The notes below the pieces were generated by a model. That model made no database searches, was not told the DNA's origin, and saw only the letters and a program-made list of their open reading frames with translations. Shown here piece by piece: positions 5,770-31,400 of a DNA stretch of 64,000 nucleotides. Origin of the DNA: an uncultured Actinomycetes bacterium (GTDB lineage: Bacteria > Actinomycetota > UBA4738 > JBBDTT01); NCBI GenBank assembly GCA_963742735.1, contig CAVUMN010000001.1, positions 32,001 to 96,000 of the forward strand. The letters are read 5' to 3'. Position numbers and translations under genes: made by a program. How positions within the stretch are numbered: position 1 is the first letter of the stretch; every line of letters starts with the position of its first letter.

Positions 5770-5784
5770 CTGACGGTGCGTCAG
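5770..5784. promoter_or_regulatory. Palindromic operator CTGACG-GTG-CGTCAG (site 1 of 4)
   Basis: In the 78-bp divergent echA20/SDR intergenic region. Recurs at 14216, 26060 and 31384. Confidence 0.85.
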
Positions 5785-5838
5785 ATTCCTGCCGGAACAG
5801 TACACCGTGCCGGAGGGCCGGGCTGTTAGCCTTCGCGG

Positions 5839-6618
5839 ATGCTGCTCAAGGATCGCGTGGCCATCGTCTCGGGTATCGGCCCCGGCTTGGGCAAGGAGAT
5901 CGCGCTGGCCCTGGCCCGGGAGGGCGCCGACGTCGCCCTGGGCGCGCGTACCGAGGACCGCCTGCGGGAAGTGGCCGGCGAGGTCGAGGCCCTCGGCCGG
6001 CGAACGATCTGGGCGCCCACCGACGTGACGGACCCGGCGCAGCGGCAGGCCCTGGTGGACGCCACCGTCGACGCGTTCGGCCGCGTGGACGTCCTGGTGA
6101 ACAACGCGTTCGTCCAGCCGCCCTTCAAGCGGATCGAGTACGAGACCGAGGACATGTTCCGCCGGGCGTTCGAGGTCAACGTCCTGGGCGGGCTGGGGAT
6201 GGCCCGGGCCGTCATCCCGGCGATGCAGGCCCAGGGCGGCGGGTCGATCGTGTTCATCAACACAATGTCGATCCGGACCTCGGAGATCAAGACCGGCGCG
6301 TACGCGGCGTCGAAGAGCGCGCTGTTCGGCGCGGCGCGGGTCCTGGCCCGCGAGCACGGCCGCGACGGGATCCGGGTGAACAGCGTGATGCCCGGCTACG
6401 TCATGGGCCCGAACCTCGAGTGGTACTTCAACCACCTGGCAGAGAAGGAGGGCGTCACGCCCCAGGACGTCTACGACCGGGTCGCCGAGCAGACCGCGCT
6501 CCGCCACCTGCCCACCTCGGCCGAGGTGGCCGACGCCGTGGTGTTCTTCGCCAGCGACCTGTCGAGGGTGATCACCGGCCAGTCGCTCGACGTGAACGGA
6601 GGCCACTGGTTCGACTGA
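5839..6618 (+). CDS. SDR oxidoreductase (Rv3530c-like subfamily)
   Basis: SGIGPGLG Rossmann variant, NNAF, YAASK. TAGCCT -10 box 6 nt before ATG. Confidence 0.85.
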   Translation: MLLKDRVAIVSGIGPGLGKEIALALAREGADVALGARTEDRLREVAGEVEALGRRTIWAPTDVTDPAQRQALVDATVDAFGRVDVLVNNAFVQPPFKRIEYETEDMFRRAFEVNVLGGLGMARAVIPAMQAQGGGSIVFINTMSIRTSEIKTGAYAASKSALFGAARVLAREHGRDGIRVNSVMPGYVMGPNLEWYFNHLAEKEGVTPQDVYDRVAEQTALRHLPTSAEVADAVVFFASDLSRVITGQSLDVNGGHWFD

Positions 6619-6661
6619 ACCGCCGATCGCGGTCCGAGTGGCTGCCAATACACTCTCCGCC

Positions 6662-9600: not shown

Positions 9601-9853
9601 CGCCCGCCGCGGGGAGCACGAGCAGGCGGCGCGCCTCGCCGCCGAGGCCGTCGCGCTCGCGGAGAACATCGACTACCGGAACACCCGCGCGATGGTGTTC
9701 CTGGCCGCCGCGGAGGTCGCGGAGCTGCGCGGGGACCGTGAGGAGGCCGCCGGCTGGGTTCGCCGGGCCATCGAGGAGTACGAGCTCCGCGAGAACCAGG
9801 TCTCCGCCGCCAGGGCCAGGGAGCGGCTGGCGGGGCTCGAGCGGTCGGCTTAG
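6662..9853 (+). CDS. Class III adenylate/guanylate cyclase with zinc ribbon, AAA/STAND ATPase and TPR-like C-terminus
   Basis: CPNC..CLEC, LFSDLAGST, EKFIGDAVMAVF, GDAVNVAARLE, Walker A GSAGVGKS, LFDDIHWA, helical repeats. Confidence 0.9.
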   Translation: MQACPNCGEQNPDRAKFCLECGTTFADAATGPRREVRKTVTVLFSDLAGSTALGERLDPESLRRVMDRYFERMSAVVESHGGVVEKFIGDAVMAVFGIPVLHEDDALRAVRAAAGMRAALVALNEELATDFEVGIEVRTGVNTGEVVTGQGGDQRLVTGDAVNVAARLEQAAAAGDILVGESTYRLVRDAVVAEPVEPLTLKGKADPVPAYRIVEVEAGAEGLSRRLDSPMVGRDHERSLLAQAFDRAVEERTSHLFTVLGSAGVGKSRLVADFLDQVEARAQVIRGRCLPYGEGITFWPIREVVSRAAGIAEEDPPDRAIALLRELLSEEPESIANDVAALLGFAPGVVAPEEGSRAVRRLFETLARRRPLVVLFDDIHWAETAFLDLVEHVADLSRDAPILLLCVARPELLELRPGWGGGKLNATSILLQPLSPTECRTLMENLLGGSGLDAATAQRIVEAAEGNALFVEQMLAALVDDGVLERRNGGWAMREGVESVPVPESIQALLAARLDRLGEAERSVVERASIVGRVFYRSAVAELSPERLRPSVGADLVTLVRKDLIRPQGAEFADEETYRFLHMLIRDAAYESLPKEVRADLHERFARWLESVAGSREREFEEIVAYHLEQACLYRREIGASDAALEELARATAGRLFAVAEQARDRGDPSAAINLFGRALALLPSGEDPPPRSLLVYGEVLETAGHPQRAEEVLLQAEGAAGRAKDEPLGALAHALARVTTLSLDPTVPFAEVLIDLTRAVELLRSGGTGGQLAQALHLVGLLEFWLGRSEVSRTRNLEALALAQAAGDEREVARSREALCLGMVFGATPASTCILEAREAVEASAGRVSEAQAHGALAMGLAMSGAIDEGRAHLDRSRTLLAEFGQRMHLSAGHTVGEFALIVGHPTLVLEVLEPGLRDLESVRETGFASTTAAHLARAYVDVGRLEEAEATARKSAAWAAEDDAHPQCSWRAALARVHARRGEHEQAARLAAEAVALAENIDYRNTRAMVFLAAAEVAELRGDREEAAGWVRRAIEEYELRENQVSAARARERLAGLERSA

Positions 9854-10977
9854 CTCGCGCCGCTGTCGACGCTCACGAAGGGCGTGTCGGAGTCCAGCTC
9901 CGAGCGGGCGATGACCTCCTCCAGATAGCGCGGGTCGAAGAACGTGATCTCGAGCTGCTTGGCGCGGCGGAAGTAGAGCTGCATGTCGATGTCCCGGGTG
10001 AAGCCGATGCCGCCGAACACCTGCTGACCGACCTTGGTGGAGCGGCGGAACACGTCGCACGCGTAGAGCTTGGCCATCGCGGCCAGCGGGCCCATGGGCA
10101 GCCCCGACGCGCGCCGCCAGGCCGCCTCGTAGACGAGCACCCGGCCGCCCTCGAACTCGGTGGCGATGTCGGCGAGCGGGTGGGCGATCCCCTGGAAGGA
10201 CCCGATCGGCCGGTCGAACTGGATGCGCTCCTTCGCATATTCCACGGACATCTCGTGGGCCCGCTCGGCGCCGCCGATGGCGTACGCGGCGATGGCGATG
10301 AGGCCGTCGGCCATCGCCTCCTCCAGGATGATCCGGCCGTCGCCCGGGAGGCGGTCCCCGGGCGCATCGGCCAGGTCGAGCTGGTAGTCGGCCTCCGAGC
10401 CCATGGAGGGCGTCTGGGTCAGCGTCACGCCGTCCGCGCGCGGATCCAGCAGGTACGCGGCCATGACCTCGCCCTCGCGGGCCAGGACGATGATCGCGTC
10501 GGCGGAGCTGGCGTACGGCACCATGATCTTGGTGCCGGTGAGTGTTCCGCCTCGGGCCTCCAGCCGGACTCCCTCGGGGCCGGAGCTGGACTCGGGCTCG
10601 TGCCAGGCGACGGTGACGATCGCCTCCCCCGCCGCGATCCTCGGCAGCCACTCGGTCTTCTGCGCGTCAGTCCCCCCGGCCGCGATCAGCCCGGCCGCGA
10701 TGACGGCGCTGACGAGGTGGGGCGAGGGCGCGATCGCCCGGCCGAGCTCCTCGTAGACGACGGCGAGCTCCAGCGGGCCGAGCCCGGCGCCCCCGTGCTC
10801 CTCCCCGACGACCAGGCCGACCAGCCCGGTCTTCGCCAGCTCGTCCCAGAGCTCGGTGCGATAGCCCCTGGGGTCGTCCTCCAGCGCGCGAACGATGTCG
10901 ACGGTCGAATGCTTCGCGCACAGCTCGCGCACGGTCTGACGGAGGAGCTCCTGCTCTTCGGTGAAGTCGAGGTCCAC
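9850..10977 (-). CDS. Acyl-CoA dehydrogenase (short, beta-type subunit)
   Basis: DLDFTEEQELLRQ, QFDRPIGSFQ, GGIGFT. AGAAGGAG RBS before GTG. Confidence 0.88.
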   Translation of the reverse strand: MDLDFTEEQELLRQTVRELCAKHSTVDIVRALEDDPRGYRTELWDELAKTGLVGLVVGEEHGGAGLGPLELAVVYEELGRAIAPSPHLVSAVIAAGLIAAGGTDAQKTEWLPRIAAGEAIVTVAWHEPESSSGPEGVRLEARGGTLTGTKIMVPYASSADAIIVLAREGEVMAAYLLDPRADGVTLTQTPSMGSEADYQLDLADAPGDRLPGDGRIILEEAMADGLIAIAAYAIGGAERAHEMSVEYAKERIQFDRPIGSFQGIAHPLADIATEFEGGRVLVYEAAWRRASGLPMGPLAAMAKLYACDVFRRSTKVGQQVFGGIGFTRDIDMQLYFRRAKQLEITFFDPRYLEEVIARSELDSDTPFVSVDSGAS

Positions 10978-10988
10978 GTCGTCTCCTT

Positions 10989-11462
10989 CTAGGGTTGCCA
11001 GTCGTCGCCCGAGCGCGCCCAGGGGCTGGGGCCGTCGCCGGCGAGGATCGCGATGCGCGCCCAGCACTCGACGGCCGTCTCGCCGTTCGCGCTGACGGCG
11101 AGATCCACCTCGGCCCAGGTGCAGCCGGTCTGGTCTGTCTCGACCTTGCTCACGGTGCCGTTGAAGGTCATGCGGTCGCCGGCACAGATCGACCGACGCA
11201 TCCGGAACCGCAGCCGGCCGAGCCGTCCGATGGGCCCGGTCCAGTCGGTGAGGTAGCGCTCGAACCAGCCGGCGAGGTTCGGGGTGTTCAGGAAGATGTC
11301 CTTGGTCCCGACCTTCTCGCGGGCCCAGGCGTGGTCGTGGTGCTGGGGCTGCCAGTCCCGGCTCGCCGACGCGCCCATGATCACGACCCGCGGGGTGACG
11401 TCGACCGTCAGCTCTGGGAGCTTCTCCCCCACCCGCGCGTCCGGCCCGATCGTGTTGATCAC
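10989..11462 (-). CDS. MaoC-type (ChsH1-like) enoyl-CoA hydratase subunit
   Basis: ASRDWQPQHHD hydratase motif, DIFLNT, RYLTDWTGP. GTGA overlap. Confidence 0.8.
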   Translation of the reverse strand: MINTIGPDARVGEKLPELTVDVTPRVVIMGASASRDWQPQHHDHAWAREKVGTKDIFLNTPNLAGWFERYLTDWTGPIGRLGRLRFRMRRSICAGDRMTFNGTVSKVETDQTGCTWAEVDLAVSANGETAVECWARIAILAGDGPSPWARSGDDWQP

Positions 11463-11971
11463 GAGGAGGCCTCCCCGCGGACATAGCTGAACATCTCGTA
11501 GGTCTCCACGCCGACGATCTCGTCGTTCTGGTTGCGATAGGTGACGTCGATCGTCCAGTTGCGGCCCCTGCCGACGCGGCTCTCGCGGAACTCGCCGATC
11601 TCGCGGACGGACTCCGTGGTCCGAACGCGGTCGCCGGGCCGGACCGGTGCGTAAAACGCGATCTCGTTGCGATACACGATGCCGTCGGGGAGGCCGAACG
11701 CCTCCTTCATGCGGAAGTGGAGCTCCAGCGGGCGGACAGCCTCTGCGGCGTCCGGCTTCCACACCAGCGGCCGCATCCAGACCGACAGCATCGACGGCGG
11801 AGCCACCGGTCCACCCGAGAGGTGCTGGGCCTGCTGGGGGTCCCAATACAGCGGGTTCGCGTTCTCCGTGGCCTCCAGCCAGTGCAGGATCGCGCCGGGC
11901 TCGCAGGCGATGTCCCCCAGCGGGTTCTCCAGCTCGACGCCGGTCCACTTCGCGACCAGGTCGTCGGTCAC
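11459..11971 (-). CDS. MaoC/hotdog dehydratase partner subunit (similar to ChsH2 N-domain)
   Basis: ILHWLEATENANPLYWD, VAPPSML, PVRPGDRV. Confidence 0.8.
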   Translation of the reverse strand: MTDDLVAKWTGVELENPLGDIACEPGAILHWLEATENANPLYWDPQQAQHLSGGPVAPPSMLSVWMRPLVWKPDAAEAVRPLELHFRMKEAFGLPDGIVYRNEIAFYAPVRPGDRVRTTESVREIGEFRESRVGRGRNWTIDVTYRNQNDEIVGVETYEMFSYVRGEASS

Positions 11972-13011
11972 GGGCGATCCCCTCGTGCGAGGACCTCGCC
12001 GACCTGACGGAAGTGGCCGTGGTCGGGGTGTTCGGCCTCGACGATCGCGCCGCGGGCGACGAACTGCGGATCGTCGCCGACCTCGCCGATCGAACGCACC
12101 GGCGCGACGCACGTGTCGAGCGGGGCGAGCACGTCCACCCACGCGTCGCGGTCCCGGATCGCGAACGCCTCCGCCAGCCGCGTACGGAGCTCGTCCTGGC
12201 GCGCGTCGTCGTACTGCGCGTCCGCGAGCTCCTCGAACCCGAGGGCCCGGCACAGGTTCGCGAAGAACTTGCCCTCGATCGCGCCCACCGAGATCCACCG
12301 GCCGTCCGCGCACCGATACACGTCGTAACAGGCGTACTTCCCGGTGAGCAGGCTCGTCCCCGGGCCGGTCTCGACCCCGGTCGCGAGGTGCTCGTCGACG
12401 AACAAGGCCATCAGGTGCAGCACGCCCTCGGCGGTGGAGACGTCCAGGTACGCGCCCTCGCCGGCGGCCTCCCGCCGGAACAGCGCGGCCGCGATCGACA
12501 GCGCCGCGTGCAGGCCGCCCCCCGCGCCGTCGGCCAGCGTGGCGCCGGGGATCGCGGGGCCCCCGTCCTCGCGGCGTCCCTGGGTCCCCAGGAACCCCCC
12601 GACGGCCAGGTAGTTGAGGTCGTGTCCGGCCCACGCCGCGTACGGGCCGTCCTGCCCGTATCCCGTGATGGCGGCGTAGACGATGCGCGGGTTGGTCTCG
12701 CGGCACGCCTCGTAGCCGATCCCGAGGCGGTCGGCGACGCCGGGCCGGTAGGACTCGACCACGACGTCGGCCTCACCCACGAGCCGGTGGAACTCCGTCT
12801 TCCCCTCCTCCGACTTCAGGTCGAGGTCGACGGTTCGGGTTCCCCGGCCCGCGCCGTAGGCATAGAAGGGCGGCTCGATGCGGCCGGCGCCCTTCGGGGG
12901 CAGCACCTTGACGATCGAGGCGCCCAGGTCCCGGAGCGCCGCCGTGCATCGCGCGCCCGGCCCGACCGCGGAGAGGTCCAGGACGGTCACGCCGTCGAGC
13001 GGTCCCGGCAT
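11968..13011 (-). CDS. CaiB/BaiF family III CoA-transferase, alpha-methylacyl-CoA racemase-like
   Basis: LDGVTVLDLS, ESYRPGVADRLG, GYGQDGPY, GHDLNY (racemase-type motif). Confidence 0.82.
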   Translation of the reverse strand: MPGPLDGVTVLDLSAVGPGARCTAALRDLGASIVKVLPPKGAGRIEPPFYAYGAGRGTRTVDLDLKSEEGKTEFHRLVGEADVVVESYRPGVADRLGIGYEACRETNPRIVYAAITGYGQDGPYAAWAGHDLNYLAVGGFLGTQGRREDGGPAIPGATLADGAGGGLHAALSIAAALFRREAAGEGAYLDVSTAEGVLHLMALFVDEHLATGVETGPGTSLLTGKYACYDVYRCADGRWISVGAIEGKFFANLCRALGFEELADAQYDDARQDELRTRLAEAFAIRDRDAWVDVLAPLDTCVAPVRSIGEVGDDPQFVARGAIVEAEHPDHGHFRQVGEVLARGDRP

Positions 13012-13018
13012 CGGCCCG

Positions 13019-14201
13019 TCAGCTCTGGACGGGGAGGCCCAGGCCGCGCCGGGCGATGATGTTGCGCTGCACCTCGGACGTCCCCGCGCCGACGGTGTCG
13101 ATCACGCTGTAGCGGTAGATGTGCTCGAAGCGGCCGTCGACGGGCGCGTGCGGCGCTCCGCGGCGAAGGGCTCCCTGCGCGCCGGTGATCGTCAGGAACT
13201 CGTCGGCGACGCGCTGGCCGATCGTGGTCGTCCACAGCTTGAACATCGCCGACTCCAGGTTGGGGACCTCGCCGGCGGCGGCCTTCGTGATCACCCGCAT
13301 GCAGTGCATCCGGGCCACCTCCACCTGCGTGGCCAGCCAGGCGGTGGTCCGGCGCACGTGCGGATCGTCCTTCAGCGCCGTGCCGTCCCGCTGCGCGGTC
13401 CGCACGTAGTCGCGGTACGCCTCGTACTTCTTCACGTAGGCCGCGATCGTGAACAGCGTGAAGCGCTCGAAGTCCAGGGCCTCGGAGACGTAGTAGAAGC
13501 CCTTGTCCACCTCGCCAACGACGTAGTCGTCGGGGATGAACACGTTCTCCAGGAACACCTCGTTCGTGATCTCGTTGTCGCCGATCGTGTCCATGGCCTG
13601 GACGGTGATCCCCTCGGCGCTTCATCGGGACCAGGAAGAGCGTGATGCCCTTGTGTTTGGGGGCGTCGGGGTCGGTGCGGGCGGCCAGCCAGTACCAGTC
13701 GGCGAAGTGGGCCGACGTGGTGAACCGCTTCTGCCCGGTCAGGCTCCAGCCGCCCTCGACCTTCGTCGCTCGGCATTTCAATGCGGCCAGGTCGGAGCCG
13801 GCGTCCGGTTCGGAGTACCCGATGGCGAACTCGACCTCGGCGTTGAGGATCTTGGTCAGGAACTCCTGCTTCAGCCGCTCGTTGCCGTGGCGGATGATCG
13901 TCTTGCCGACGATGCCCACGCCCTTGCCGATCAGCGGCGCGCCGACCGCGGCGAGCTCCTCGTTCAGCAGGTACTCATAGACGCCGGGCTGCTCGTGGCC
14001 GCCGTACTCCTTCGGCCAGGACATACCGATGTAGCCGCGCTCGGCCATCTTCTTCATGAACCCGCGCCGCTCGGGGGTGTCGACGAGCTGGGCCATGCCC
14101 TCGCGGGTGGGATCCATGACCTCGGGCGAGTACGTCTCGCGAAGGAACTCGCGGACCTCTTTCTGGAAGCGCTTCTCGTCCTCGGTCCAGTCGAAGTTCA
14201 C
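13019..14201 (-). CDS. Acyl-CoA dehydrogenase (FadE26/29-like alpha subunit), frameshift ~13615
   Basis: FAIGYSEPDAGSDLAAL, WLAARTDPDAPKHKGIT in one frame. TNEVF...LDFERF...GAGTSEVQRNII in another. Confidence 0.85.
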
Positions 14202-14213
14202 ACCGCCAAGAAT

Positions 14214-14232
14214 ATCTGACGGACCGTCAGAT
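14214..14232. promoter_or_regulatory. Palindromic operator ATCTGACG-GAC-CGTCAGAT (site 2)
   Basis: Abuts a minus-strand TATTCT -10 box (14209-14214) lying 7 nt before the GTG of the ACAD operon. Confidence 0.85.
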
Positions 14233-14307
14233 TTCAGGCGACCGGGTTGCCTCGAAGGAGCCTCGAGGGAGTCTGATAGGCGCGTCACCGCCGGAGGGGA
14301 GCCGGAC

Positions 14308-15302: not shown

Positions 15303-15896
15303 CTAGTCGGAGGTGGCGGTGAGGCTGCTCGCGCGCCACCGGCAGAACTGAACCACCTCTCCCGCCAGGGTCTGGAGCTGGAACGCCACCTTGTCGTCGA
15401 CGCACACGCCGGTCTCGTCGAACGTCGGGAGGGTCGAGTTGATGGCCGCGCCGAGGGGTGTGACCCAGCCGCGAAGCGCGTGCACGATCGCGCGCATGGC
15501 CTCGATCGTCGTCACGATCCCCTGCCAGCCCGCGCCGGTGGCGATGATCCCGACCGCCCTGCCGGACAGATACGGGTTGGGGTCCTCGCGCATGTCCTCG
15601 GTGTAGTCGAGGGCGTTCTTCACCATGCCGCTCACGCTGCCGTGGTAGCCGGGTGAGGCGACGATGAGGCCGTCGGCGCGGCGGAGCTCCTCGACGAGCT
15701 GGACCGCCTCGGGCGCGCGCTCGGGGCGCTCCGGGGCGTAGTGCGGAAGCCGTTCCAGGAAGTTGCCGTCGAACCGAGCGGTGGTGGCGCCGTCCTGCTC
15801 GGCGGCCTCGAGGGCGAAGCGCAGGGCCTTCTCGGTGGAGGAGTTGTCGCGGGTGGTTCCGCCGATGCCGACGATGTGCGGGGCCCGCTCGTTCAT
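15303..15896 (-). CDS. NADPH-dependent FMN reductase
   Basis: GIGGTTRDNSST, ASPGYHGSVSGMVKNALDY. Confidence 0.88.
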   Translation of the reverse strand: MNERAPHIVGIGGTTRDNSSTEKALRFALEAAEQDGATTARFDGNFLERLPHYAPERPERAPEAVQLVEELRRADGLIVASPGYHGSVSGMVKNALDYTEDMREDPNPYLSGRAVGIIATGAGWQGIVTTIEAMRAIVHALRGWVTPLGAAINSTLPTFDETGVCVDDKVAFQLQTLAGEVVQFCRWRASSLTATSD

Positions 15897-15898
15897 GG

Positions 15899-17131
15899 CT
15901 ACGCCATCTCGAAGAGCTCGAGCTCCAGGAACAGCCGGTGGTCGAGCTTGTCGCGCTTCGCCTGCAGGTAGCGCAGGTTCTCGGGGGTCGGCTCGGTCTG
16001 CAGCGGCACGCACTCGCTGACGATCACGCCGAGCTCCTCGAGCCCGCGGCACTTGGCCGGGTTGTTGGTGAGCAGCCGAACCGACTGGATCTCGAGGTCG
16101 CGCACGATCTGCGCGGCCGCCTCGTAGGTGCGGATGTCGGCCGGCAGCCCCAGCGCCAGGTTCGCGTCGACCGTGTCGAGGCCCTCGTCCTGGAGCTCGT
16201 AGGCGCGCAGCTTGTCGAGGATGCCGATCCCCCGTCCCTCGTGGCCCTTCACGTACACGATGACGCCCCGGCCGATCGCCGCGATCTCGCGCATGGCCTC
16301 GTGGAGCTGGGCGCGGCAGTCGCAGCGCAGGCTGCCGAAGACGTCGCCGGTCAGGCACTCCGAGTGGATCCGGGTGAGCACGTCCTCCCCGCCCTCCGCC
16401 GGTCCGAACACCAGGGCGATGTGCTCCCGGTTGTCGGTGCCCGACCGATAGCCGAGGCCGCGGAACTCGCCGAAGGGCGTGGGGATGCGCGCCTCGGCGA
16501 TGCGTTCGATCAGGACCTCGCTGCGCTGCCGGTACGCGATGAGGTCGGCGATCGTGACCAACAGGAGGCCGTGGGTCTTCGCCACCTCGACCAGATCCGG
16601 CAGGCGGGCCATGGAACCGTCGGCGTTCATGACCTCGCAGATCACCCCGGCCGGCTCGAACCCTGCCAGGCGGGCCAGGTCCGTCGCGGCCTCGGTGTGG
16701 CCGGCGCGCTCCAGCACGCCCCCCGGCCGCGCCGCGAGGGGGAAGACGTGGCCCGGCGTGCGGAACTCGTCGCCCCGGGCGTCGGGGGAGACCGCCCGGG
16801 CGATGCACCGCGCGCGGTCGTGCGCGGAGATGCCGGTGTTCACGGGGGTGTGGAGGTCGATGGAGACGGTGAAGGCCGTCCCCTTCGGGTCCCGGCTTCC
16901 GGCGACCATGGGTCGCAGGCCGAGGTCGGCGGCGCGGCGACCGGTGATCGGAAGGCACACCAGTCCCCGGCCGTGGGTGACCATGAAGTTGATGGCGTCG
17001 GGGGTGACCATCTCCGCGGCCATCACGAAGTCGCCCTCGTTCTCACGGTCCGGGTCGTCCACGACGATGACGATCTCGCCGCGGCGGATGGCGTCGATGG
17101 CATCCTGGATGCGGGCGAATGGGTGGGTCAC
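15899..17131 (-). CDS. ribBA: Bifunctional DHBP synthase / GTP cyclohydrolase II
   Basis: DDPDRENEGD, GHTEA, RIHSECLTGDVFGSLRCDC, EGRGIG, LLTNNPAK. Confidence 0.93.
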   Translation of the reverse strand: MTHPFARIQDAIDAIRRGEIVIVVDDPDRENEGDFVMAAEMVTPDAINFMVTHGRGLVCLPITGRRAADLGLRPMVAGSRDPKGTAFTVSIDLHTPVNTGISAHDRARCIARAVSPDARGDEFRTPGHVFPLAARPGGVLERAGHTEAATDLARLAGFEPAGVICEVMNADGSMARLPDLVEVAKTHGLLLVTIADLIAYRQRSEVLIERIAEARIPTPFGEFRGLGYRSGTDNREHIALVFGPAEGGEDVLTRIHSECLTGDVFGSLRCDCRAQLHEAMREIAAIGRGVIVYVKGHEGRGIGILDKLRAYELQDEGLDTVDANLALGLPADIRTYEAAAQIVRDLEIQSVRLLTNNPAKCRGLEELGVIVSECVPLQTEPTPENLRYLQAKRDKLDHRLFLELELFEMA

Positions 17132-17156
17132 GCGGCGCTCCCCCCGTCTCACGTGG

Positions 17157-17194
17157 TGTTCGCTATAGCGAACAGCCAATCACAATGACAAACG
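17157..17194. promoter_or_regulatory. Tandem operator with perfect 18-bp palindrome TGTTCGCTATAGCGAACA (putative IclR site)
   Basis: 29/36 identical to 23675-23710. Lies directly downstream of a minus-strand TTGACG-18-TACCCT promoter and overlaps the -35 of a plus-strand ATGACA-17-TATGAT promoter. Confidence 0.8.
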
Positions 17195-17243
17195 AAGGGT
17201 ACGTCGGTATGATGCGCTCCGTCAAGCCCCGAGGAGAGCCTCG

Positions 17244-18145: not shown

Positions 18146-18176
18146 TCCGTTGGCCGGGGGGGTACCGTCGGCAGTC

Positions 18177-19835: not shown

Positions 19836-19841
19836 CCGGTC

Positions 19842-20711: not shown

Positions 20712-20713
20712 CG

Positions 20714-21688
20714 CTAGGCCTCCGCCTTCACGCCGGCCAACGCGGCGACGCGCGGCCCCGCCGCGGCGGCGATCGCACGGTGGCCGTCGTCGTCGGGGTG
20801 CAGCCCATCGTGCAGCTGCGCCTCGGTGATCAGCCCCGCGCCGCCCAGGAGCTCGAGGTGGGCGTCCCCCGCCTCGATCCGGGCCTGGACGACGTTCTCG
20901 ATCGCGGCGCGCAGGCCCCGGAGCGTGGCGCCCAGGCGGTTCGGCGTCTCCTCGGCGTCGGGACGCAGGACCGGGCTCACCACCAGGATCGGCGCCTCCG
21001 GGTGTCCCTGGCGGACGATCTCCAGGAAGGCGACCGTACCCTCGAGCACCATCCCCACGCTGTGGGGCGTGCGCGTCCAGCAGTTCGTCCCGTGGCAGAT
21101 GGTGACCACGTCCGCGTCGAGCTCCGCGACGTGCTCTGCCGAGACGATCTCTCCGCGGGCCGATCCGTTGTAGCCCATGTTGACGGCGTCCAGACGGTGC
21201 TCACGACTGACTCGGCTGACCCAGCCCAGCGCCGGCTCGGACGCGCTCCAGCCCGCGGCGATGCTGTCCCCGTAGACCACCCAGCGCGGCCCGGTCGGCG
21301 CCGGCTCGAGCGATCCGCCGATCCCCTCCACGCTCGTGATCTCCGGACGAAGCACCTCCGGCAGGTACACGACGTCACCCATGGGCACGCGGACGACGCC
21401 CTCGCCCACCATCGCCTCAGCCTCCCCCAGCTTCTCCACGCCCCTCCAGGACGAGAACGCCGGCGTAACGGGTCGCGAGTGCGGGTCCGGTTTCCCGTTC
21501 GCGTTCCGGTAGGCGATCTCCACCTGGGACGCGTCGCCCTGGAGCTCGAGGCGAACGCCGACCGGCGCCTGGGCCTGGTACCAGGTGTCGACGGGCAGGC
21601 GCATGAAATCGTCCGGCTTCGCGCGCGGGTACGGCACCTTCGCGGCGCCGGGCCACGCGATGCCGCGGAGGAAGGGTCCGGGATCCAC
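20714..21688 (-). CDS. SGNH/GDSL hydrolase
   Basis: YGDSI, GYNG, GTNC, DGLHP. Confidence 0.85.
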   Translation of the reverse strand: MDPGPFLRGIAWPGAAKVPYPRAKPDDFMRLPVDTWYQAQAPVGVRLELQGDASQVEIAYRNANGKPDPHSRPVTPAFSSWRGVEKLGEAEAMVGEGVVRVPMGDVVYLPEVLRPEITSVEGIGGSLEPAPTGPRWVVYGDSIAAGWSASEPALGWVSRVSREHRLDAVNMGYNGSARGEIVSAEHVAELDADVVTICHGTNCWTRTPHSVGMVLEGTVAFLEIVRQGHPEAPILVVSPVLRPDAEETPNRLGATLRGLRAAIENVVQARIEAGDAHLELLGGAGLITEAQLHDGLHPDDDGHRAIAAAAGPRVAALAGVKAEA

Positions 21689-21698
21689 GTTCAGCCGC

Positions 21699-22496
21699 TC
21701 ACGGGGACAGGGGGAAGGGGAACTTCGCCGTGGCGCCCCCGTCCACCACGAGCGTCTGCCCGGTCACGTGCGAGGCCAGGTCGGAAATCAGGAACAGGAT
21801 CGCGGCGGCGATCTCCGAGGTCTCCGCCACGCGCCCGAGCGGAACCTGCTTCGACTGGACCTCCCGGCCACGTTCGCCGATCAGCTCCTGCACCCGGGGC
21901 GTCCACACCACGCCCGGGGCCACGGCATTGACGCGGATGTTGCTCGGCCCGAGCTCGACGCCGAGCGAACGGACCCACGAGATCAGCGCGGCCTTCGCCG
22001 CGCCGTAGAACGCATGGCGCGGCGCGGCGGTGATCCCGCTGATCGACGCCACGAACACCATCGCGCCCCCGCCGTCCTCGGCCATGGCCCGCCCCGCGGC
22101 CTGGGAGAACAGCACCGCGTGACGAAGGACCATCCCGTAGGTCCAGTCCCAGTCGTCGTCGCTGGTGTCGAGCGAGTCGACGTAGCGGGCCATCCCGACG
22201 ATGTCCACGAGCGCGTCGATCCGTTCGAGCTGCGAGCGCGCCTCGGCCACCGCCCGCTCGACGTCCTCCCGCTCCCGCGCGTCGCCGCTCCACCCGATCC
22301 CCCCGATCTCCTCGGCGATCTCCTTGGCCAGGTTCTCGTCGACGTCGATGCAGAACACCTTCGCGCCGACCGAGGCCAGCGCGTGCGCGGTCTGCCGCCC
22401 GATCCCGTTGCCGGCGCCGACGACCACGACGCCTCGCCCGTCCAGGCGCAGCAGGTCGGGGTACGAGGGGACGGGGCTGTCGTCGACGCTCGTCAT
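21699..22496 (-). CDS. SDR oxidoreductase
   Basis: GAGNGIG, YGAAK, NAVAPG. Confidence 0.9.
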   Translation of the reverse strand: MTSVDDSPVPSYPDLLRLDGRGVVVVGAGNGIGRQTAHALASVGAKVFCIDVDENLAKEIAEEIGGIGWSGDAREREDVERAVAEARSQLERIDALVDIVGMARYVDSLDTSDDDWDWTYGMVLRHAVLFSQAAGRAMAEDGGGAMVFVASISGITAAPRHAFYGAAKAALISWVRSLGVELGPSNIRVNAVAPGVVWTPRVQELIGERGREVQSKQVPLGRVAETSEIAAAILFLISDLASHVTGQTLVVDGGATAKFPFPLSP

Positions 22497-22517
22497 CGAG
22501 GCGCCCTCCCGGGCTGT

Positions 22518-23659
22518 CTACTTGGCGGTGACGGTCGCGGTGGTCTCGACGTCGCGCTTGTCGAGTTCGGGGATCACGTGCTTCCCGAGCAGCTCGAGCG
22601 TGCGCATGATCGATTCGTGGGACAGCGAGCCGAACTGCACGTAGCAGATCAGCTGCTCCACCCCGAGGCTCTCGTACCGAAGGATCTTCTCCATGCACTG
22701 ATCGGGGTCGCCCACGATGATCATGTCGGCCTGGTGGAAGACCTGGACGTCGAGATCGCCGGACGCGTGCTTGCGCAGGAGCGGGAAGATCTGGTCCTTC
22801 TCCTCCTGCGACAGGTGGGGGAACTCCCACTCGAGGGTGAACTCGGCGAGGTTCTTGTACCACCACCACACGGACTCCCAGATGCCGTTCTCCTCGCACT
22901 GGGCCAGCGAGTCGGCGCAGTGGACCAGCGTGTACGCGGCCACCCGGTTGTTGTGCACGCGGGTGATCGGCTTGGCGGTCTCCTGCGCGGCCGCGGTAGT
23001 CGCGTGATGTGCTGGGCCATCTTCTCGAGCGGCTGCATGATCGCGAAGGACAGCAGGCCCAGGCCGAGCGAGCCGGCGACGGCGCTCGAGCCCTGCGAGG
23101 TCGCGGCCATCCACGCCGGCGGATGCGGGTCCTGCACCGGCTTGGGCGTGACCATGCGCCGCGGGAAGTCGAACGTCGGCGAGTGGTACTCGAAGTACTC
23201 CGACTCCCACATGCCGCAGATGATCTCCAGGGCCTCCTGCCACTGCTCGCGGCTCTTCTCGCGGTCGACGCCGAACGCGATCTGCTCCATGGGGGTCGAG
23301 CGGCCGGTGCCCCACTCGACGCGGCCGCCGGACAGGATGTCGACGGTGGCGACCTTCTCCGCGACGCGCGCGGGGTGGATGAACTGGAACGGCAGCAGCG
23401 TCACGCCGAAGCCCAGGCGGATCTGCTCGGTGACCTGGCTGAGCGCGCCGAGGACGACCTCGCTCGCCGGCGAGTGCGAGCGGCCCTCGCGGAAGTGGTG
23501 CTCCACGGACCAGACGGTCTTGAACCCCATCTGGTCGGCCAGGCGGATCTGCTCGAAGGCCTCCTTGTAGGCCTTCTGCTCCGCCTCGCGCTGCCCGTAC
23601 GGGTGGGGCTTGCCCCACGGCTTCGGCACGTCGATCTCGTAGAGGACGTCCAGCTTCAT
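22518..23659 (-). CDS. Luciferase-like (LLM) flavin-dependent oxidoreductase, frameshift ~23005
   Basis: WSVEHHF, RVAEKVATVDILSGGRVEWGTGR, PKPVQDPHPP. C-terminal IVGDPDQC...LLGKHVIPEL lies in another frame. Confidence 0.85.
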
Positions 23660-23674
23660 CCGTCCGCCTCCTCT

Positions 23675-23710
23675 TTCGCTATCGCAAACGACCGGTCACA
23701 ATGGCAAACG
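23675..23710. promoter_or_regulatory. Second copy of the tandem (putative IclR) operator
   Basis: TTCGCTATCGCAAACGACCGGTCACAATGGCAAACG, directly downstream of a minus-strand TTGACA(23737-42)-18-GATACT(23713-18) promoter. Confidence 0.8.
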
Positions 23711-23757
23711 CCAGTATCCCCAGGGGGCCCCGGGCCTGTCAAGGCGGATCCCGGTGC

Positions 23758-24420
23758 CTAGAGGCTCGGAGCCGGACGGCCGGTGACCCCCGAGAAGAGG
23801 ATCGTGGTTACGCTGCGGCGCATGTCGTCGGTCTTGATCCCCCAGAACTCGAAGCCGTAGCGATGGGCGGCGACGTGGACGAGCAAGGACACGAGCGCGG
23901 CGGCCTGGGCCATCGGCTCGGGGCCGCGGCGGGTCCGGCGCTGGGCGCTCTCGATGGCCCGGCGGAGGCTCTCCGTGACCTCGTTGAGCAGGTGGGTGCG
24001 CACGTTCTGGAACCGCATGTCGCCCTCCGCGGTGGAGAGGTCCACCACGCGCAGCACGGCGCGGTGCCGCTCCCACAGGTCCAGGATCGCGTCGACCAGG
24101 TCCTCCGACGCGCTGTATCCGTTGCGGCCCCGCCAGTCGGCGTCGTCGATGATCGCGGTGAGCTTCGGCGCCTCGTCGGCCAGCGCGCGAGCCAGGACCA
24201 GGACGGCCGCCTCCACGTCCTCGAAGTACTGGTAGAAGGTCGCCGGCGAGGTCCCCGCGCACTCCGCGATGTCGACGACCGACAGGTCCCGGTAGGACGT
24301 CTTCTCCAGGAGCTCGGCGGTGCAGGCCAGGAGGCGCTCACGCGTTGCCCGGCCCCGCTTTCCGGGCACCCGCCCGTCGACGGCGGGGAGGTCCTCGGGG
24401 ACGGGGCGCAGGTCGGCCAT
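23758..24420 (-). CDS. TetR-family transcriptional regulator
   Basis: RGRATRERLL...SVVDIAECAGTSPATFYQYF HTH. Confidence 0.9.
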   Translation of the reverse strand: MADLRPVPEDLPAVDGRVPGKRGRATRERLLACTAELLEKTSYRDLSVVDIAECAGTSPATFYQYFEDVEAAVLVLARALADEAPKLTAIIDDADWRGRNGYSASEDLVDAILDLWERHRAVLRVVDLSTAEGDMRFQNVRTHLLNEVTESLRRAIESAQRRTRRGPEPMAQAAALVSLLVHVAAHRYGFEFWGIKTDDMRRSVTTILFSGVTGRPAPSL

Positions 24421-25052
24421 CAGATCTCCTCCAACCACTCGCGGATCACGTCGTCGGTGGTCACCACCGTTGCCAGCAGCGACAGCGTGTTGTCGATGAT
24501 CGTCTCGGCGTACTCCTCGGGGACACCCGCCACGGCGTCGCGTGGCAGTACGAACTCGTAGCCGAGGTTCACGGCGTCCATGACGAAGTTCGTGATCCCC
24601 ACGTTCACCGAGACGCCCGCCCCGATGATCGTCCTCACCCCGAGGTTGCGCAGGACCGCGTCGAGGTCGGTCCCCGCCATCGGCCCGATGCCGTGGTACC
24701 GCGACAGCACGATGTCCGTGGGCTGGAGGGCGACCTCGTCCACGAGCTGCACGGCCTCGCTGTCGGGGGTGAGGGCCACCTCGGAGTTGACGGCCGCGGT
24801 GAACAGCCGCGCGTTCGTGTTCGAGCCGGCCCCGTCGAGCCGCCGCATGGCCACGCAGTGGATGACGGCGGCGCCGGCCACCCGGGCCGCGCGAGCCAGG
24901 CGGCCGCAGTTCTCGAGCATCCCCTGCTGCGCGATCTTCGCCAGCTCCGGGAAGACCGCCGGCTCCCCCACCACGCCCTTCTGGATCTCCTGTGTGACGA
25001 GCGCCGTGTGCACCGGAAGGATCAGCCCGCGCAGGTCGTCGTGCCCGCTCAC
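24420..25052 (-). CDS. Isochorismatase/cysteine-hydrolase-fold protein (atypical active site)
   Basis: TALVTQEIQKG, GTDLDAVLRNLGVRTII, DAVNLGY, DAVAG. Confidence 0.82.
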   Translation of the reverse strand: MSGHDDLRGLILPVHTALVTQEIQKGVVGEPAVFPELAKIAQQGMLENCGRLARAARVAGAAVIHCVAMRRLDGAGSNTNARLFTAAVNSEVALTPDSEAVQLVDEVALQPTDIVLSRYHGIGPMAGTDLDAVLRNLGVRTIIGAGVSVNVGITNFVMDAVNLGYEFVLPRDAVAGVPEEYAETIIDNTLSLLATVVTTDDVIREWLEEI

Positions 25053-26041
25053 GGTTTCACCTTCGGCAGCACGGTCTCCTGGAACAGCCGCAGCCCCTCC
25101 CAGCCCCACTCGGGCGGCATTCCGGAGATCAGCGGGTTCAGGACCACGTTGCCCATCGGGCCGAGCGACTCGATGAACGCCACGGCGTCGTCGGGGGTCA
25201 GCACCTTGAACAGGCCCTCCTCGCGGAGCTCGGCCGGCGACTGCGCGTACGACGAGACCTGCGAGCGGACGTCAGGCGACTGCAGGGCGCGGTAGGACTC
25301 CACCTCGTACCAGAAGTACGGCTCGAACCGCGCCCAGTCGCGTTCGGGGTCCTCGGAGACGTACAGGTACCCGACCTCCTGGGGCAGGATCACCAGCCCG
25401 CCTCCCCAGCCGTCCGCGGCGCACGCCTCCTTGTAGACCCGCTCCAGCTCCGGATCCGCGATGGCGGGGAGGAATCCCACCCGAAGCCGGGCCGCGCGCT
25501 TCGCCGCCGCGGCGCTGGATCCGCCCATGAGGATCATCGGCTCGGGCGAGCTCACCGGCCGTGGCGTGACCTTCACGGTGCGTCCCCGGTACTCGAACGG
25601 CTCGCCGGTCCACGCCTGCCGGCAGACCGAGATCGCCGCTTCCACGAGCTTGCCGCGGCCTTTGGGCTCGACGCCCTGCATCGCCAGCTCGAACTCGACG
25701 TAGCCGGCGCCGGCGATGAGCCACAGCCGGCCGGGTCCGGCGGTGATGTCCACCACCGCGATCTGCTCCGCAACGCGGACGGGGTCGTGGAACGGGAACA
25801 CCAGCGCCGCGATCATGATCCGAACCGTCTCGGTCACCGCGCCGACCGCGGCGGCGAAGGTCAGGGGGGATGGCAGCCAGCCGTCGTCCATCCCGTGGTG
25901 CTCCGTGAGCGTGATGATGTCGGCGACGCGGTGCTCGTCCGCCCACGCGGCCTGCTCCAGGCAGGCTCGGTAGAGGTCGGCGTGCGAGGCCTCGGCGAAC
26001 GGCGCGGTGCGCAGGTCGTAGCGGATCGCGATGAACGGCAT
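25049..26041 (-). CDS. LLM-class flavin-dependent oxidoreductase
   Basis: TEHHGMDDGWLPSP, HDPVRVAEQIAVVD, MGGSSAAAAKRAAR. Confidence 0.88.
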   Translation of the reverse strand: MPFIAIRYDLRTAPFAEASHADLYRACLEQAAWADEHRVADIITLTEHHGMDDGWLPSPLTFAAAVGAVTETVRIMIAALVFPFHDPVRVAEQIAVVDITAGPGRLWLIAGAGYVEFELAMQGVEPKGRGKLVEAAISVCRQAWTGEPFEYRGRTVKVTPRPVSSPEPMILMGGSSAAAAKRAARLRVGFLPAIADPELERVYKEACAADGWGGGLVILPQEVGYLYVSEDPERDWARFEPYFWYEVESYRALQSPDVRSQVSSYAQSPAELREEGLFKVLTPDDAVAFIESLGPMGNVVLNPLISGMPPEWGWEGLRLFQETVLPKVKP

Positions 26042-26059
26042 CCCGGACTCCAGTGAAAC

Positions 26060-26074
26060 CTGACGGTGCGTCAG
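26060..26074. promoter_or_regulatory. Palindromic operator CTGACG-GTG-CGTCAG (site 3)
   Basis: Sits in the 34-bp gap upstream of LLM-hydrolase-TetR. CCTGACGGTGCGTCAGAT is identical to site 1. Confidence 0.85.
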
Positions 26075-26075
26075 A

Positions 26076-28438: not shown

Positions 28439-28490
28439 GGGCCTCTCCAGCGTTTGTCGGAAGCTCGACCGTACCCGCAAACTGGAGGGC

Positions 28491-29798
28491 GTGTCACACG
28501 CGTTCCTCGTCGAGAGCATCGTCGCGCTGGTCCTCACGGCCAACGCGCTGCGACCCATCCCCGCAACGCCCATTTCGCCGGTCCTGTTCTTCCTGTCCTG
28601 GCTGACCTCCGAGCTCGCGGTTCAGTCGCTGGTCGTCCAGGCGGCGCTCACCGTCGTGTTCGTCACGAACGGCGCGCTCGATCGGCGCGGCGGGCGGATC
28701 GCGCTGGGGTTGTCCCTCGCCGTCCTCGCCGGGCTGGGCATCCTCATCTGGGAGGCCATGCGCGCGCGGGCGGTGACCGAACGCGCCCTCCGCGAGGGCC
28801 TCGGCGAGGACTATCTGTCGAAGATCCCCCCCGACCGTTCGCAGAACTACGACCTTCGGGTCCCGTGGCGCCAGCTGATCATGCCGTTCCGCCAGGTCCA
28901 TCCCGACGTCGAGCGCATCGCGAACCTGTCCTACGGGCCGTACGGGAAGCGGAACCTCCTCGACGTGTTCGTCCACAAGGACCGGCCGAAGGGTTCGCCC
29001 ATCCTCATCCAGATCCACGGCAGCGGATGGACCGTCTCGAAGAAGGAGCACCAGGGCAAGCCGATCATGCTTCACCTCGCCTCGCGCGGATGGGTGTGCG
29101 TCGCGCCCAACTATCGGCTGTCGCCCAAGGCGACGTGGCCCGATCACCTGGTGGACGTGAAGCGGGTGGTGGCCTGGGTCCGCGACCACGCGCACGAGTT
29201 CGGCGGCGACCCCGACTTCATCGCCGTGACCGGTGGCTCGGCCGGCGGTCATCTCGCCGCGATGCTCGCCCTGACCCCGGGACAGCCCGAGTACCAGCCC
29301 GGCTTCGAGGACGCCGACACCCACATCGACGCCTGTGTGCCGATCTACCCGCCGACCGACCTCGCCCACCGGACCCGGCCCTCGACCTGGGGTCAGATGC
29401 GGTTCCTCCTGGAGCCCATCGTCATGAAGGCCCGGTACAAGGACGACCCGGACCGGTTCCGCAACGCCTCGCCGCTCTACCTGGTGAAGGAGGACGCCCC
29501 GCCGTTCTTCGTCATCCACGGCAAGCACGACCTGTTGGTGCCGGTGTGGACCGCCCGAGCCTTCGTCGAGAAGCTTCGTGAGGCCTCGCTGCGGCCGGTC
29601 GTGTACGCCGAGCTCGCGGGAACCCAGCACGCCTTCGACGTGTTCCCCTCCATCCGAACGGCCCACATGGTCCGGGCCGTCGAACGGTTCCTGGACTACC
29701 TCCTCGCGACGCGGGGCGAACCCGTTCCCGGCCACGGCGCCGACATCCCCGAGCGGCGGGCCGGCGCCGAGTCCCCTAGCGGCGCTCGTCCGGCCTGA
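28491..29798 (+). CDS. Membrane-anchored HSL-family esterase (LipM/LipO-like)
   Basis: N-terminal TM segments, HGSGW, GGSAGG, HGKHD, QHAFD. Confidence 0.87.
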   Translation: MSHAFLVESIVALVLTANALRPIPATPISPVLFFLSWLTSELAVQSLVVQAALTVVFVTNGALDRRGGRIALGLSLAVLAGLGILIWEAMRARAVTERALREGLGEDYLSKIPPDRSQNYDLRVPWRQLIMPFRQVHPDVERIANLSYGPYGKRNLLDVFVHKDRPKGSPILIQIHGSGWTVSKKEHQGKPIMLHLASRGWVCVAPNYRLSPKATWPDHLVDVKRVVAWVRDHAHEFGGDPDFIAVTGGSAGGHLAAMLALTPGQPEYQPGFEDADTHIDACVPIYPPTDLAHRTRPSTWGQMRFLLEPIVMKARYKDDPDRFRNASPLYLVKEDAPPFFVIHGKHDLLVPVWTARAFVEKLREASLRPVVYAELAGTQHAFDVFPSIRTAHMVRAVERFLDYLLATRGEPVPGHGADIPERRAGAESPSGARPA

Positions 29799-31365
29799 CG
29801 CTGAACCCGAGCGCCTCCAGGTCCCACGTTTCCTCGGTCACGCCGCGGTCGCGTAGCAGGTGCTTCATCACCCGCAGGGTGGCCGTCTTCGGGAGCTCGG
29901 GCAGGACTTCCACGTAGCGCGGGATCGCGAAGTAGGGCAGCGTGGCCTTGAAGTACTCGAACACTTCGTCCGGCCGGAACTCGGCGCCGGGCTCCAGCAC
30001 CAGGCAGGCCTTGATGTCGTCCTCGGTGAGGGCCGAGGGCACCGCGTGGACGGCCGCCTCGGCGACCCTGGGGTGGGCCACGATCGCCCGTTCGAGCTCC
30101 ACGGAGGAGACGTTCTCGCCGCGGCGGCGCAGGGCGTCCTTCTTGCGGTCCACGAACGTGAGGACGCCGTCCCCGGACATCCGGCCGAGGTCGCCGGTGT
30201 GGTGCCACAGGTTGCGCCACGCCTCGAGGGTGGCCTCGGGCTTGCCCCAGTACCCCAGATAGACGGCGTTCGGGATGCGGGGGCGAACGACGATCTCGCC
30301 CGGCTCCCCCGCTGGGACCTCGCCGTCCTCCTCGTCGACGACGCGCACGTCCAGGTACGGCGCCGGCCGGCCGACGCTCGCCGGGTCGACGCCCTCGGAG
30401 AGCGCGCTGTATGCGATCGCGCCGGTCTCGGTCTGGCCGTACAGCTGGGACAGCACCCGGGCGCCGAACCGCTCCTCGAACCGCCGTTGGTCGTCGACCG
30501 CGAACGGGATCATCAGCGCGACCCGGAGCCGGCCGGCGCGGTCCAGGTCCGAGGGCTCCGTCGCCAGCAGGGCCATGCCCATCATTCCCACGCCCAGGAA
30601 GACGCTTGCGCCGGTCTCCGCGAACCGCTCGCGAAGGCCTCCGACCGAGAAGACCGGGTCGACGATCGCCTGCAGCCCGTAGACCAGCGTGCCCATCATC
30701 GTGCCCTGCGCCCACGCGTGGAACAGCGGCAGGCAGGTCAGCACGACGTCGTCGTCGCGGTACTCGACCATCCGCGAGCTGACGGTCGAGCCGGTGAGGT
30801 ACCAGCCGTGCGGGAGCATGCAACCCTTGGGCATCCCCGTGGTTCCGGACGTGTAGAGGATGGACAGGAGGGTCTCCGGCGACAGGTCCGCCTCCGGGAG
30901 CTTCGCGTCGGCCGAGGCGAGCTCCGCGAAGGGGGTGTTCTCGATCCCCTCGACCGAGCCGTCGTCGAGGGTGACCGCCCGGACCAGGTCCGGAAGCTCG
31001 GCCATCAGCGGGGCCACGGCCCCCACCCCGGCCGCGTCGGTGACCAGGGTCGAGGCCTGCGAGTCGCGGAGCTGGTAGCGGAGGAACTCACCCTTCAGGA
31101 ACACGTTCAGGGGGACGAAGACCGCCCCGAGCTTGGCGCACGCGAAGAACAGCTCGGCCATCTCGATGCGGTTCCCGGAGATCACGGCCACCCGGTCGCC
31201 CGGCCGCACGCCGAGGGCGGCCAGACCGGCGGCGGCGGACCCCGACCGCGCGTCCGTCTCTTCGAAGGTGCGCCGGTCCTCGCCGGACCATAGATATGGG
31301 GCATCCCCGAGCGCGGCGGCCTGCGAGCGCAGGGCCTCGCCCACGGTCCGCCAGGCTGGCTCCAT
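29776..31365 (-). CDS. Acyl-CoA synthetase (CaiC-like)
   Basis: YTSGTTGMPKG, YGQTE, HTGDLG, RRRGENVSS, LPKTAT. Confidence 0.9.
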   Translation of the reverse strand: MEPAWRTVGEALRSQAAALGDAPYLWSGEDRRTFEETDARSGSAAAGLAALGVRPGDRVAVISGNRIEMAELFFACAKLGAVFVPLNVFLKGEFLRYQLRDSQASTLVTDAAGVGAVAPLMAELPDLVRAVTLDDGSVEGIENTPFAELASADAKLPEADLSPETLLSILYTSGTTGMPKGCMLPHGWYLTGSTVSSRMVEYRDDDVVLTCLPLFHAWAQGTMMGTLVYGLQAIVDPVFSVGGLRERFAETGASVFLGVGMMGMALLATEPSDLDRAGRLRVALMIPFAVDDQRRFEERFGARVLSQLYGQTETGAIAYSALSEGVDPASVGRPAPYLDVRVVDEEDGEVPAGEPGEIVVRPRIPNAVYLGYWGKPEATLEAWRNLWHHTGDLGRMSGDGVLTFVDRKKDALRRRGENVSSVELERAIVAHPRVAEAAVHAVPSALTEDDIKACLVLEPGAEFRPDEVFEYFKATLPYFAIPRYVEVLPELPKTATLRVMKHLLRDRGVTEETWDLEALGFSVRPDERR

Positions 31366-31381
31366 GGGTCCGTACGATACG

Positions 31382-31400
31382 ATCTGACGCACCGTCAGAT
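31382..31400. promoter_or_regulatory. Palindromic operator ATCTGACG-CAC-CGTCAGAT (site 4)
   Basis: Centre of a 53-bp divergent intergenic region. The reverse complement equals the core of sites 1 and 3. Confidence 0.87.

Follow-up and report, generated by a model that had tools for sequence, protein, structure and literature searches.

KstR2 is the TetR repressor of steroid C/D-ring catabolism in Mycobacterium and Rhodococcus; PMC3068626 gives its box as AnCAAGnnCTTGnT and places one copy between Rv3549c and Rv3550, and PMC5380842 names the coenzyme A (CoA) thioester HIP-CoA as its effector. Other TetR proteins have sites away from promoters, SlmA and RefZ being the precedents described in PMC6657595, and for SCO4421 of Streptomyces coelicolor PMC3878966 reports sporulation-linked expression, a mutant without phenotype and an existing deletion strain. 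Here, we analyze a 64-kb stretch of contig CAVUMN010000001.1 (hereafter, the window) from an uncultured Actinomycetes bacterium whose genome, G000, spans 3.08 Mb and is 88.9% complete. Four promoters of this window carry the palindrome CTGACG-N3-CGTCAG, which, judging from sequence comparisons, is very probably the operator of a TetR protein encoded at 23758-24420, with C/D-ring genes placed under its control where KstR2 is absent.

The four exact copies in the window, named here by their first nucleotides (5770, 14216, 26060 and 31384), compare with 0.02 expected, and four were reached in 0 of 100 shuffles. All are intergenic and stand 9-20 nt from a start codon, and the identities of the genes that they precede are upheld by profile and structure matches (Table 1). 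The copies at 5770 and 26060 are identical and that at 31384 is their reverse complement, so that three share one core, just as the initial annotation had described; beyond the 15-19 bp that it gave for the element, the consensus reaches about 21 bp (GATCTGACGG-W-CCGTCAGATC, with one central A/T). Across G000, the palindrome occurs in 23 exact copies against 0.23 expected and is the most over-represented spaced palindrome of the genome, the enrichment being restricted to perfect copies, with 0-2 copies for half-sites at other spacings. This over-representation in both window and genome rules out a chance origin.

Six sites of the steroid cluster, the four of the window together with C1:22810 and C1:30477, all lie at promoters, and 18 of the 23 exact copies fall outside the cluster, mostly off promoters. 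We read -10 elements as TANNNT, a known -10 consensus, because a sigma-70 scan gave nothing at 5600-6000. Such a hexamer stands within 25 nt of five of the six G000 cluster sites, 52 of 62 cluster sites of other genomes and one of 18 dispersed copies (background 4.3%), counts in which the AT flanks of the motif build in part of the signal and the rows are not independent. Conservation upstream of orthologous genes, which the initial annotation had proposed to check, is seen in G001 (congeneric, 61% complete), G027, G045, G333 and others: the 5770-type site is kept about 10 nt 5' of echA20 in G001, G027 and further genomes, the 14216-type site, which in the window heads an apparently leaderless operon (acyl-CoA dehydrogenase, CoA-transferase III, two MaoC-like proteins, acyl-CoA dehydrogenase), in G001, G027, G045 and G333, the 31384-type site in G001 and G333, and the 26060-type site in G001, where a second site precedes the isochorismatase gene.

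The gene of the proposed reader, a TetR_C_38 protein, is the last of the operon headed by the 26060 site. Its product has an N-terminal TetR helix-turn-helix and an all-helical TetR fold (model pLDDT 87, best Foldseek matches being TetRs), and a recognition helix of the form (A/V)G(T/C)S(P/A)ATFYQYF, which hardly varies among 13 family members and differs from that of KstR2. Among 215 genomes of the order, this TetR is found in three (G000, G027 and G045), which carry 22, 2 and 4 tight-pattern sites, respectively, and 200 of the 215 have none. Within a set of 47 genomes, selected because they have echA20 or the cluster and with the TetR called at E < 1e-30, the motif is present in 35 of 36 TetR-bearing and 2 of 11 TetR-less genomes, kin among them not being independent.

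Association of site and TetR extends well beyond this order. An exact site directly precedes tetR, or an isochorismatase-tetR pair, at five loci of other Actinomycetota families, and three of six loci from Myxococcota/Deltaproteobacteria have one within 1.1 kb upstream of the TetR homologue, in one case 14 nt from its start. Eighty metagenomic matches to the 21-mer divide into 62 at promoter positions, mostly of acyl-CoA genes, nine in open reading frames (ORFs) and nine unclassed; likewise, 14 of 15 sites examined in G429 are at promoters, and the 10 exact sites examined in G333 are intergenic. The TetR/operator pair spans several Actinomycetota classes, Streptomyces and Myxococcota, and the idea that the regulator is special to this lineage had to be abandoned. 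The isochorismatase gene is tightly coupled to tetR in many families, and its product may make or destroy the TetR effector. Genomes of genus g99 (family f32) have two paralogues of the TetR, as at C1:847108 and 1639544 of G314.

The relation to KstR2 was examined at echA20. No KstR2 box occurs in 5761-5838 at up to one mismatch, the lone window match at that threshold being at 10520, inside an ORF, which agrees with what had been noticed by eye. The genome search that the initial annotation proposed found no KstR2 orthologue in G000 at 88.9% completeness, the best match having 32% identity (E 9.6e-19) with a query verified against 4w97 (E 8e-109), and no tetR lies beside ipdF or fadA6 in this genome. 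KstR2 orthologues (49-99% identity) are present in 19 of the 47 genomes and nowhere else in the set. We compared 46 echA20 loci, one from every genome of the set except G045, over the 1 kb upstream: the new motif (up to two mismatches) occurs in 23 of 27 KstR2-less and 0 of 19 KstR2-bearing genomes, and the KstR2 box (up to one mismatch) in 10 of 19 KstR2-bearing and 0 of 27 KstR2-less genomes, with 8 of 9 Streptomyces having a 2-mismatch variant of the KstR2 box 21-31 nt 5' of echA20. Sites precede further HIP-catabolic genes; in G000, they stand before echA20-ipdABC, the fadE31/32-like genes and the fadA6 operon, and in G314 before fadD3, fadE31/32 and echA20-ipdABC within one region. The pattern suggests that KstR2 is not the general regulator of steroid C/D-ring catabolism in Actinomycetota. 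Two motif matches in G209 were rejected as a regulon, both lying inside an ABC-ATPase ORF.

Several observations weigh against this reading. The KstR2-type EchA20s form one clade (support 96/90), so that the split of 23/27 versus 0/19 amounts to about one evolutionary event, and the EchA20 tree, being unrooted, says nothing on the direction of the switch between KstR2 and TetR_C_38. In four of the 27 KstR2-less genomes, the search within 1 kb of echA20 gave no site, and three of these four carry the TetR; G294 carries the TetR without an exact motif. The ipdF/fadE30-like operon of G000 lacks a site and its fadD3 has a 3-mismatch site alone, so the earlier view that C/D-ring catabolism as such falls under the new operator is not supported for all of its genes. 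An IclR gene (19842-20711) in the cluster is a possible co-regulator, a kstR2 gene could be unassembled in a genome of this completeness, and the operator explanation leaves the 18 dispersed copies unaccounted for.

Under the operator reading, a TetR_C_38 dimer would bind sites over the -10 hexamer or transcription start of CoA-thioester catabolic operons, repress its own operon from the 26060 site, and be released from DNA by a pathway metabolite, for which a CoA thioester would be the most likely candidate. We tentatively propose HIP-CoA or a relative as this ligand. The regulon in KstR2-less uncultured Actinomycetota would comprise echA20-ipdABC and, in G000, also the fadE31/32-like pair and the fadA6 operon; in Mycobacterium-like genomes, KstR2 takes this place. 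If the TetR binds the promoters, it must bind the dispersed copies as well.

Two narrower explanations concern what the promoter sites serve and which protein reads them. The 5770 operator might belong to the divergent short-chain dehydrogenase/reductase (SDR) of the PRK07890 type, echA20-ipdABC being a mere unrepressed neighbour, as the Streptomyces orthologue of this SDR has a site without an adjacent echA20. However, echA20 is 9 nt away from the site and the SDR 54 nt, the site stays near echA20 where the divergent gene differs (G314, G333), and it is one gene upstream of echA20 in all four genomes of family f16; we regard this explanation as very improbable. It is also hardly credible that the palindrome is read by another protein, be it the IclR of the cluster, a TetR_C_24 protein at C4:1516646 or some other factor. 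G012 and G550 have the site with no TetR detected, and the dispersed class could have a reader of its own, but the G012 contig ends inside an isochorismatase gene just downstream of a site, and in the Myxococcota loci site and TetR occur together although their gene contexts differ. As to the TetR_C_24 protein, which is on another contig, it lies nearer to PaaR/AibR-like structures (3him/3vpr/5k7f) than to KstR2, to which it is 32% identical, and this also ruled it out as a hidden KstR2. Control by the TetR_C_38 protein is the reading that we retain for the promoter sites.

In Streptomyces, both regulators coexist, which qualifies the proposal that a different repressor replaces KstR2: the motifs exclude each other at echA20, and the proteins do not exclude each other in the genome. 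The TetR was found in all nine Streptomyces-family genomes of the 47-genome set. In G480, it adjoins AfsK-like kinase and AfsR-like regulator genes, and the afsK-linked Streptomyces protein is about 45% identical to the window TetR and has the same recognition helix. By synteny, it matches a SCO4421-type TetR; SAV3818 is the SCO4421 orthologue. Sites with up to one mismatch around this TetR are intergenic in 15 of 15 cases in G480 and 11 of 11 in G267, before orthologues of window genes. In G480, the new operator is found at FadD3-like (51%) and FadE30-like (56%) genes, and echA20-ipdABC, fadA6, ipdF and fadE31/32 are located with kstR2. Streptomyces would thus split the pathway: the new operator would govern the fadD3- and fadE30-like genes, and KstR2 would govern echA20-ipdABC, fadA6 and ipdF. 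The fadD3- and fadE30-like genes of Streptomyces lie in the afsK-linked cluster, and its echA20 loci (L154 of G480 and others) have the variant KstR2 box AACAAA(C/T)(G/A)TTTGGT.

The dispersed copies are of a different nature. Eleven of the 18 in G000 are in ORFs, four overlap a TGA stop (two of these between convergent genes) and three are in other non-promoter positions, one of which may lie in a frameshifted ORF; one host ORF has no Pfam match. With 11 of the 23 exact copies in ORFs, the genome-wide intergenic enrichment that the initial annotation had made a condition is not seen in this genus. Every ORF copy reads L-T-x-R-Q, and of the 21 LTxRQ peptides, 11 are encoded by precisely the codons of the motif where 0.39 would be expected (p ~3e-14), versus 0 of 27 for other spacings. 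In orthologue pairs picked because both members carry a site, the rare CGT codon persists there in 5 of 5 cases, versus 1 of 12 elsewhere in the same genes. Other families have other residues at these positions: Lon reads DLTLRQI here versus DHALRTI/DDALRAV, nucleoside phosphorylase DLTVRQI versus DLSPEDL/DLDPSEI, and RNase PH NLTDRQV versus TLRERGT/TLKDQGV. Since outgroup residues differ and rare codons are retained, amino-acid constraint was rejected as an explanation for these copies. Thus, perfect copies inside unrelated ORFs and at gene ends are under selection in this genus, made via amino-acid changes and kept through rare codons.

The host genes have no common function, and the pattern was seen in no other genome examined, being found in this genus only. 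Of the 17 exact copies in G001, about 10 fall outside the cluster, and sites turn over, as 3 of 5 G000 ORF sites whose host has an orthologue in G001 are present in both genomes. Two perfect sites of G001 (L007:2962 and 4539) stand at equal distance from the 3' ends of a small gene unit that is duplicated in tandem and that G000 lacks.

What the dispersed copies do can be conceived in two ways. They might be roadblock ('stoperator'-like) or decoy sites that tune read-through or the free repressor concentration, the regulon being widened without promoters; the four sites over TGA stops, two of them between convergent genes, the folding of the palindrome as a 9-bp RNA hairpin and the equal offsets in the duplicated unit of G001 are in keeping with this. 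We consider it doubtful, as 11 sites are deep in ORFs that are functionally unrelated, hairpin folding is true of any palindrome, and a decoy would hardly seem worth several amino-acid changes in Lon and nucleoside phosphorylase. Alternatively, a metabolic TetR may be in the course of co-option as a chromosome-wide positional or architectural factor, as are SlmA and RefZ, with the number of perfect sites selected and not their position, which would make it an independent recruitment of a TetR to nucleoid organization or division control. The LTxRQ codon excess, the retained CGT codons, the differing residues in other families, the unrelated hosts, the turnover of sites and the enrichment of perfect copies alone all speak for such a role. 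Nevertheless, no obvious genus-specific extra domain appears in the TetR alignment, the closest fold is EthR, with SlmA and RefZ not among the matches listed, and no clear ori/ter pattern emerged on a reconstructed circle, over which the copies could be spread at random. Contig order on this circle was inferred from split genes (C4, C2, C1 reversed, C3 reversed, with gaps; oriC near C4:415 kb); the tests gave p 0.24 for the largest gap, 0.11 for spacing and 0.026 for five sites in 100 kb, and two sites lie near the inferred terminus. We hold this role to be unlikely. A model of the TetR dimer with the FtsZ tail (residues 336-380) scored 0.00 without folded controls and speaks neither for nor against this role. 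A divergent parS/Noc site was rejected, there being one ParB beside two sites of the canonical parS type, whose consensus is known, at C4:411-414 kb, and an AT-rich imperfect inverted repeat near ftsZ (C1:169248), recombinase-site-like, is not a canonical dif. Whatever their role, the operator reading of the promoter sites entails that the dispersed copies are bound by the same protein.

The remaining features of the window are listed in Table 1. Frameshifts interrupt the acyl-CoA dehydrogenase (~13613), ipdC (~2970-3007), the fadD3-like gene (43230-44800) and a thiolase-like gene (38892-39872); they are probably assembly indels, because G001 has both the dehydrogenase and the thiolase in intact form and the assembly shows such breaks in other places too. 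Within 9850..13011, a 157-aa protein with no Pfam match at 1e-5 is called MaoC-like by position. The block at 19842-23618 (IclR, GDSL hydrolase, SDR and luciferase-like (LLM) oxidoreductase) has no operator copy, is kept in G027, G045 and L029, and is probably a separate regulon. The cluster also contains ribBA-like and FMN-reductase genes at 15303-17131, and G333 (L106:4367) has an exact site 5' of a riboflavin-biosynthesis operon; flavin supply may be part of the regulon. KstR-like boxes (AGAAC-N2-GTTCT) occur at 58298, 58334 and 62485 of the window and at C1:101689, 106592 and 114766 of G000, where a KstR-like TetR was also found (NF033703, 139 bits, below the cut-off of 280), and side-chain genes seem to keep KstR-type control beside the new regulon. 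Elsewhere in the assembly, the first 12.5 kb of C2 (1-12600) appear to be of foreign or chimeric origin, with the C4 end continued by a clpX fragment near 12.6 kb, and the right end of C2 contains an inverted duplication.

Table 1. Predicted operator sites and genes of the window (positions 1 to 64,000), with two further cluster sites given in contig coordinates of G000
Feature	Position	Strand	Remarks
Operator (predicted)	5770..5784		9 nt from echA20 ATG, 54 nt from divergent PRK07890 SDR
Operator (predicted)	14216..14230		14 nt before acyl-CoA dehydrogenase GTG at 14201; abuts TANNNT -10-like hexamer
Operator (predicted)	26060..26074		18 nt before LLM ATG; heads LLM - isochorismatase - tetR operon, autoregulatory position
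Operator (predicted)	31384..31398		between divergent AMP-forming (CaiC-like) and ADP-forming acyl-CoA ligase genes, 18/20 nt away
Degenerate 3-mismatch site	45619..45633		5' of LLM and fadD3-like gene; low confidence
Cluster site	G000 C1:22810		between fadE31/32-like pair and operon ending in fadA6
Cluster site, 1 mismatch	G000 C1:30477		before PRK07798 ligase
ipdC	2351..3350	-	two frames, 61% in two pieces; probable assembly indel
ipdB	3404..4153	-	PF01144; 53%
ipdA	4150..4995	-	E 1e-98 to 6con/6co6; 57% identity
echA20 (ring-C hydratase/hydrolase)	5002..5760	-	NF005925 388 bits, cut-off 260; 59% to mycobacterial-type EchA20
SDR (PRK07890)	5839..6618	+	operator also 5' of its Streptomyces orthologue
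CoA-transferase family III, two MaoC-like proteins, second acyl-CoA dehydrogenase	9850..13011	-	
Acyl-CoA dehydrogenase	13019..14201	-	frameshift near 13611-13615 in assembly; intact in G001
TetR family repressor, 220 aa	23758..24420	-	PF00440 and TetR_C_38 (PF19352)
Isochorismatase-family hydrolase	24420..25052	-	stop overlaps tetR start
Luciferase-like (LLM) oxidoreductase	25049..26041	-	first gene of tetR operon
AMP-forming acyl-CoA ligase	29776..31365	-	best PRK06155, below cut-off
ADP-forming acyl-CoA ligase, then SDR	31419..34399	+	
fadD3-like ligase	43230..44800	-	several frames; 43-58% to mycobacterial-type FadD3 in four pieces

Taken together, a second TetR appears to control C/D-ring genes in many uncultured lineages, with Streptomyces as a split state, and a large uncharacterised set of CoA-catabolic genes is marked as one unit. 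For SCO4421, a conserved, sporulation-induced regulator without mutant phenotype (PMC3878966), the analysis provides a testable operator and regulon. The intragenic copies are a rare instance in which proteins have been altered in sequence to create sites for a transcription factor; should they serve chromosome organization, they would show how SlmA/RefZ-like roles can start. The co-option would then be at a stage at which the TetR continues to govern a steroid/acyl-CoA regulon, and it might couple the state of the chromosome to a CoA-thioester signal. No paper giving the motif or regulon was found in a search that left out supplements, figures and RegPrecise-type databases, so an earlier prediction is possible; the text of PMC3384326 gave no match. 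A second TetR switch for C/D-ring genes is in itself a familiar kind of switch; this analysis adds to it the mutual exclusion with KstR2 at echA20, the connection to SCO4421 and the intragenic copies under selection.

Among the closest described systems is the KstR2 regulon of Mycobacterium and Rhodococcus (PMC3068626, PMC5380842), in which a TetR repressor likewise has palindromic sites before echA20-ipdABC, fadE31/32-like genes, fadA6 and its own operon. In contrast, KstR2 is a TetR_C_24 protein with a different recognition helix, it uses AnCAAGnnCTTGnT instead of CTGACG-N3-CGTCAG, and the gene set of the new regulon is much wider, including amidohydrolases, a cyclase, isochorismatase, LLMs and an ADP-forming ligase; the effector of KstR2 is HIP-CoA (PMC5380842), and the ligand of the window TetR may be similar. 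SCO4421 resembles the window TetR as a Streptomyces TetR whose gene adjoins those of an AfsK-like kinase and an AfsR-like regulator and whose recognition helix is the same, and whereas the examined text of PMC3878966 gives no operator or regulon for it, both are proposed here. EthR of Mycobacterium (PDB 1t56 and others) is the closest solved fold (TM ~0.72/0.81, 19-21% identity, E 2e-6), but its homology to the window TetR is remote, and the two are not known to share an operator or targets. Finally, SlmA with its SBS sites in Escherichia coli and RefZ with its RBM sites in Bacillus are TetR proteins with many palindromic sites off promoters (PMC6657595), as is the window TetR; unlike in those systems, no clear ori/ter bias was found here on the inferred contig order, and the same palindrome is clearly a predicted promoter operator in the cluster.

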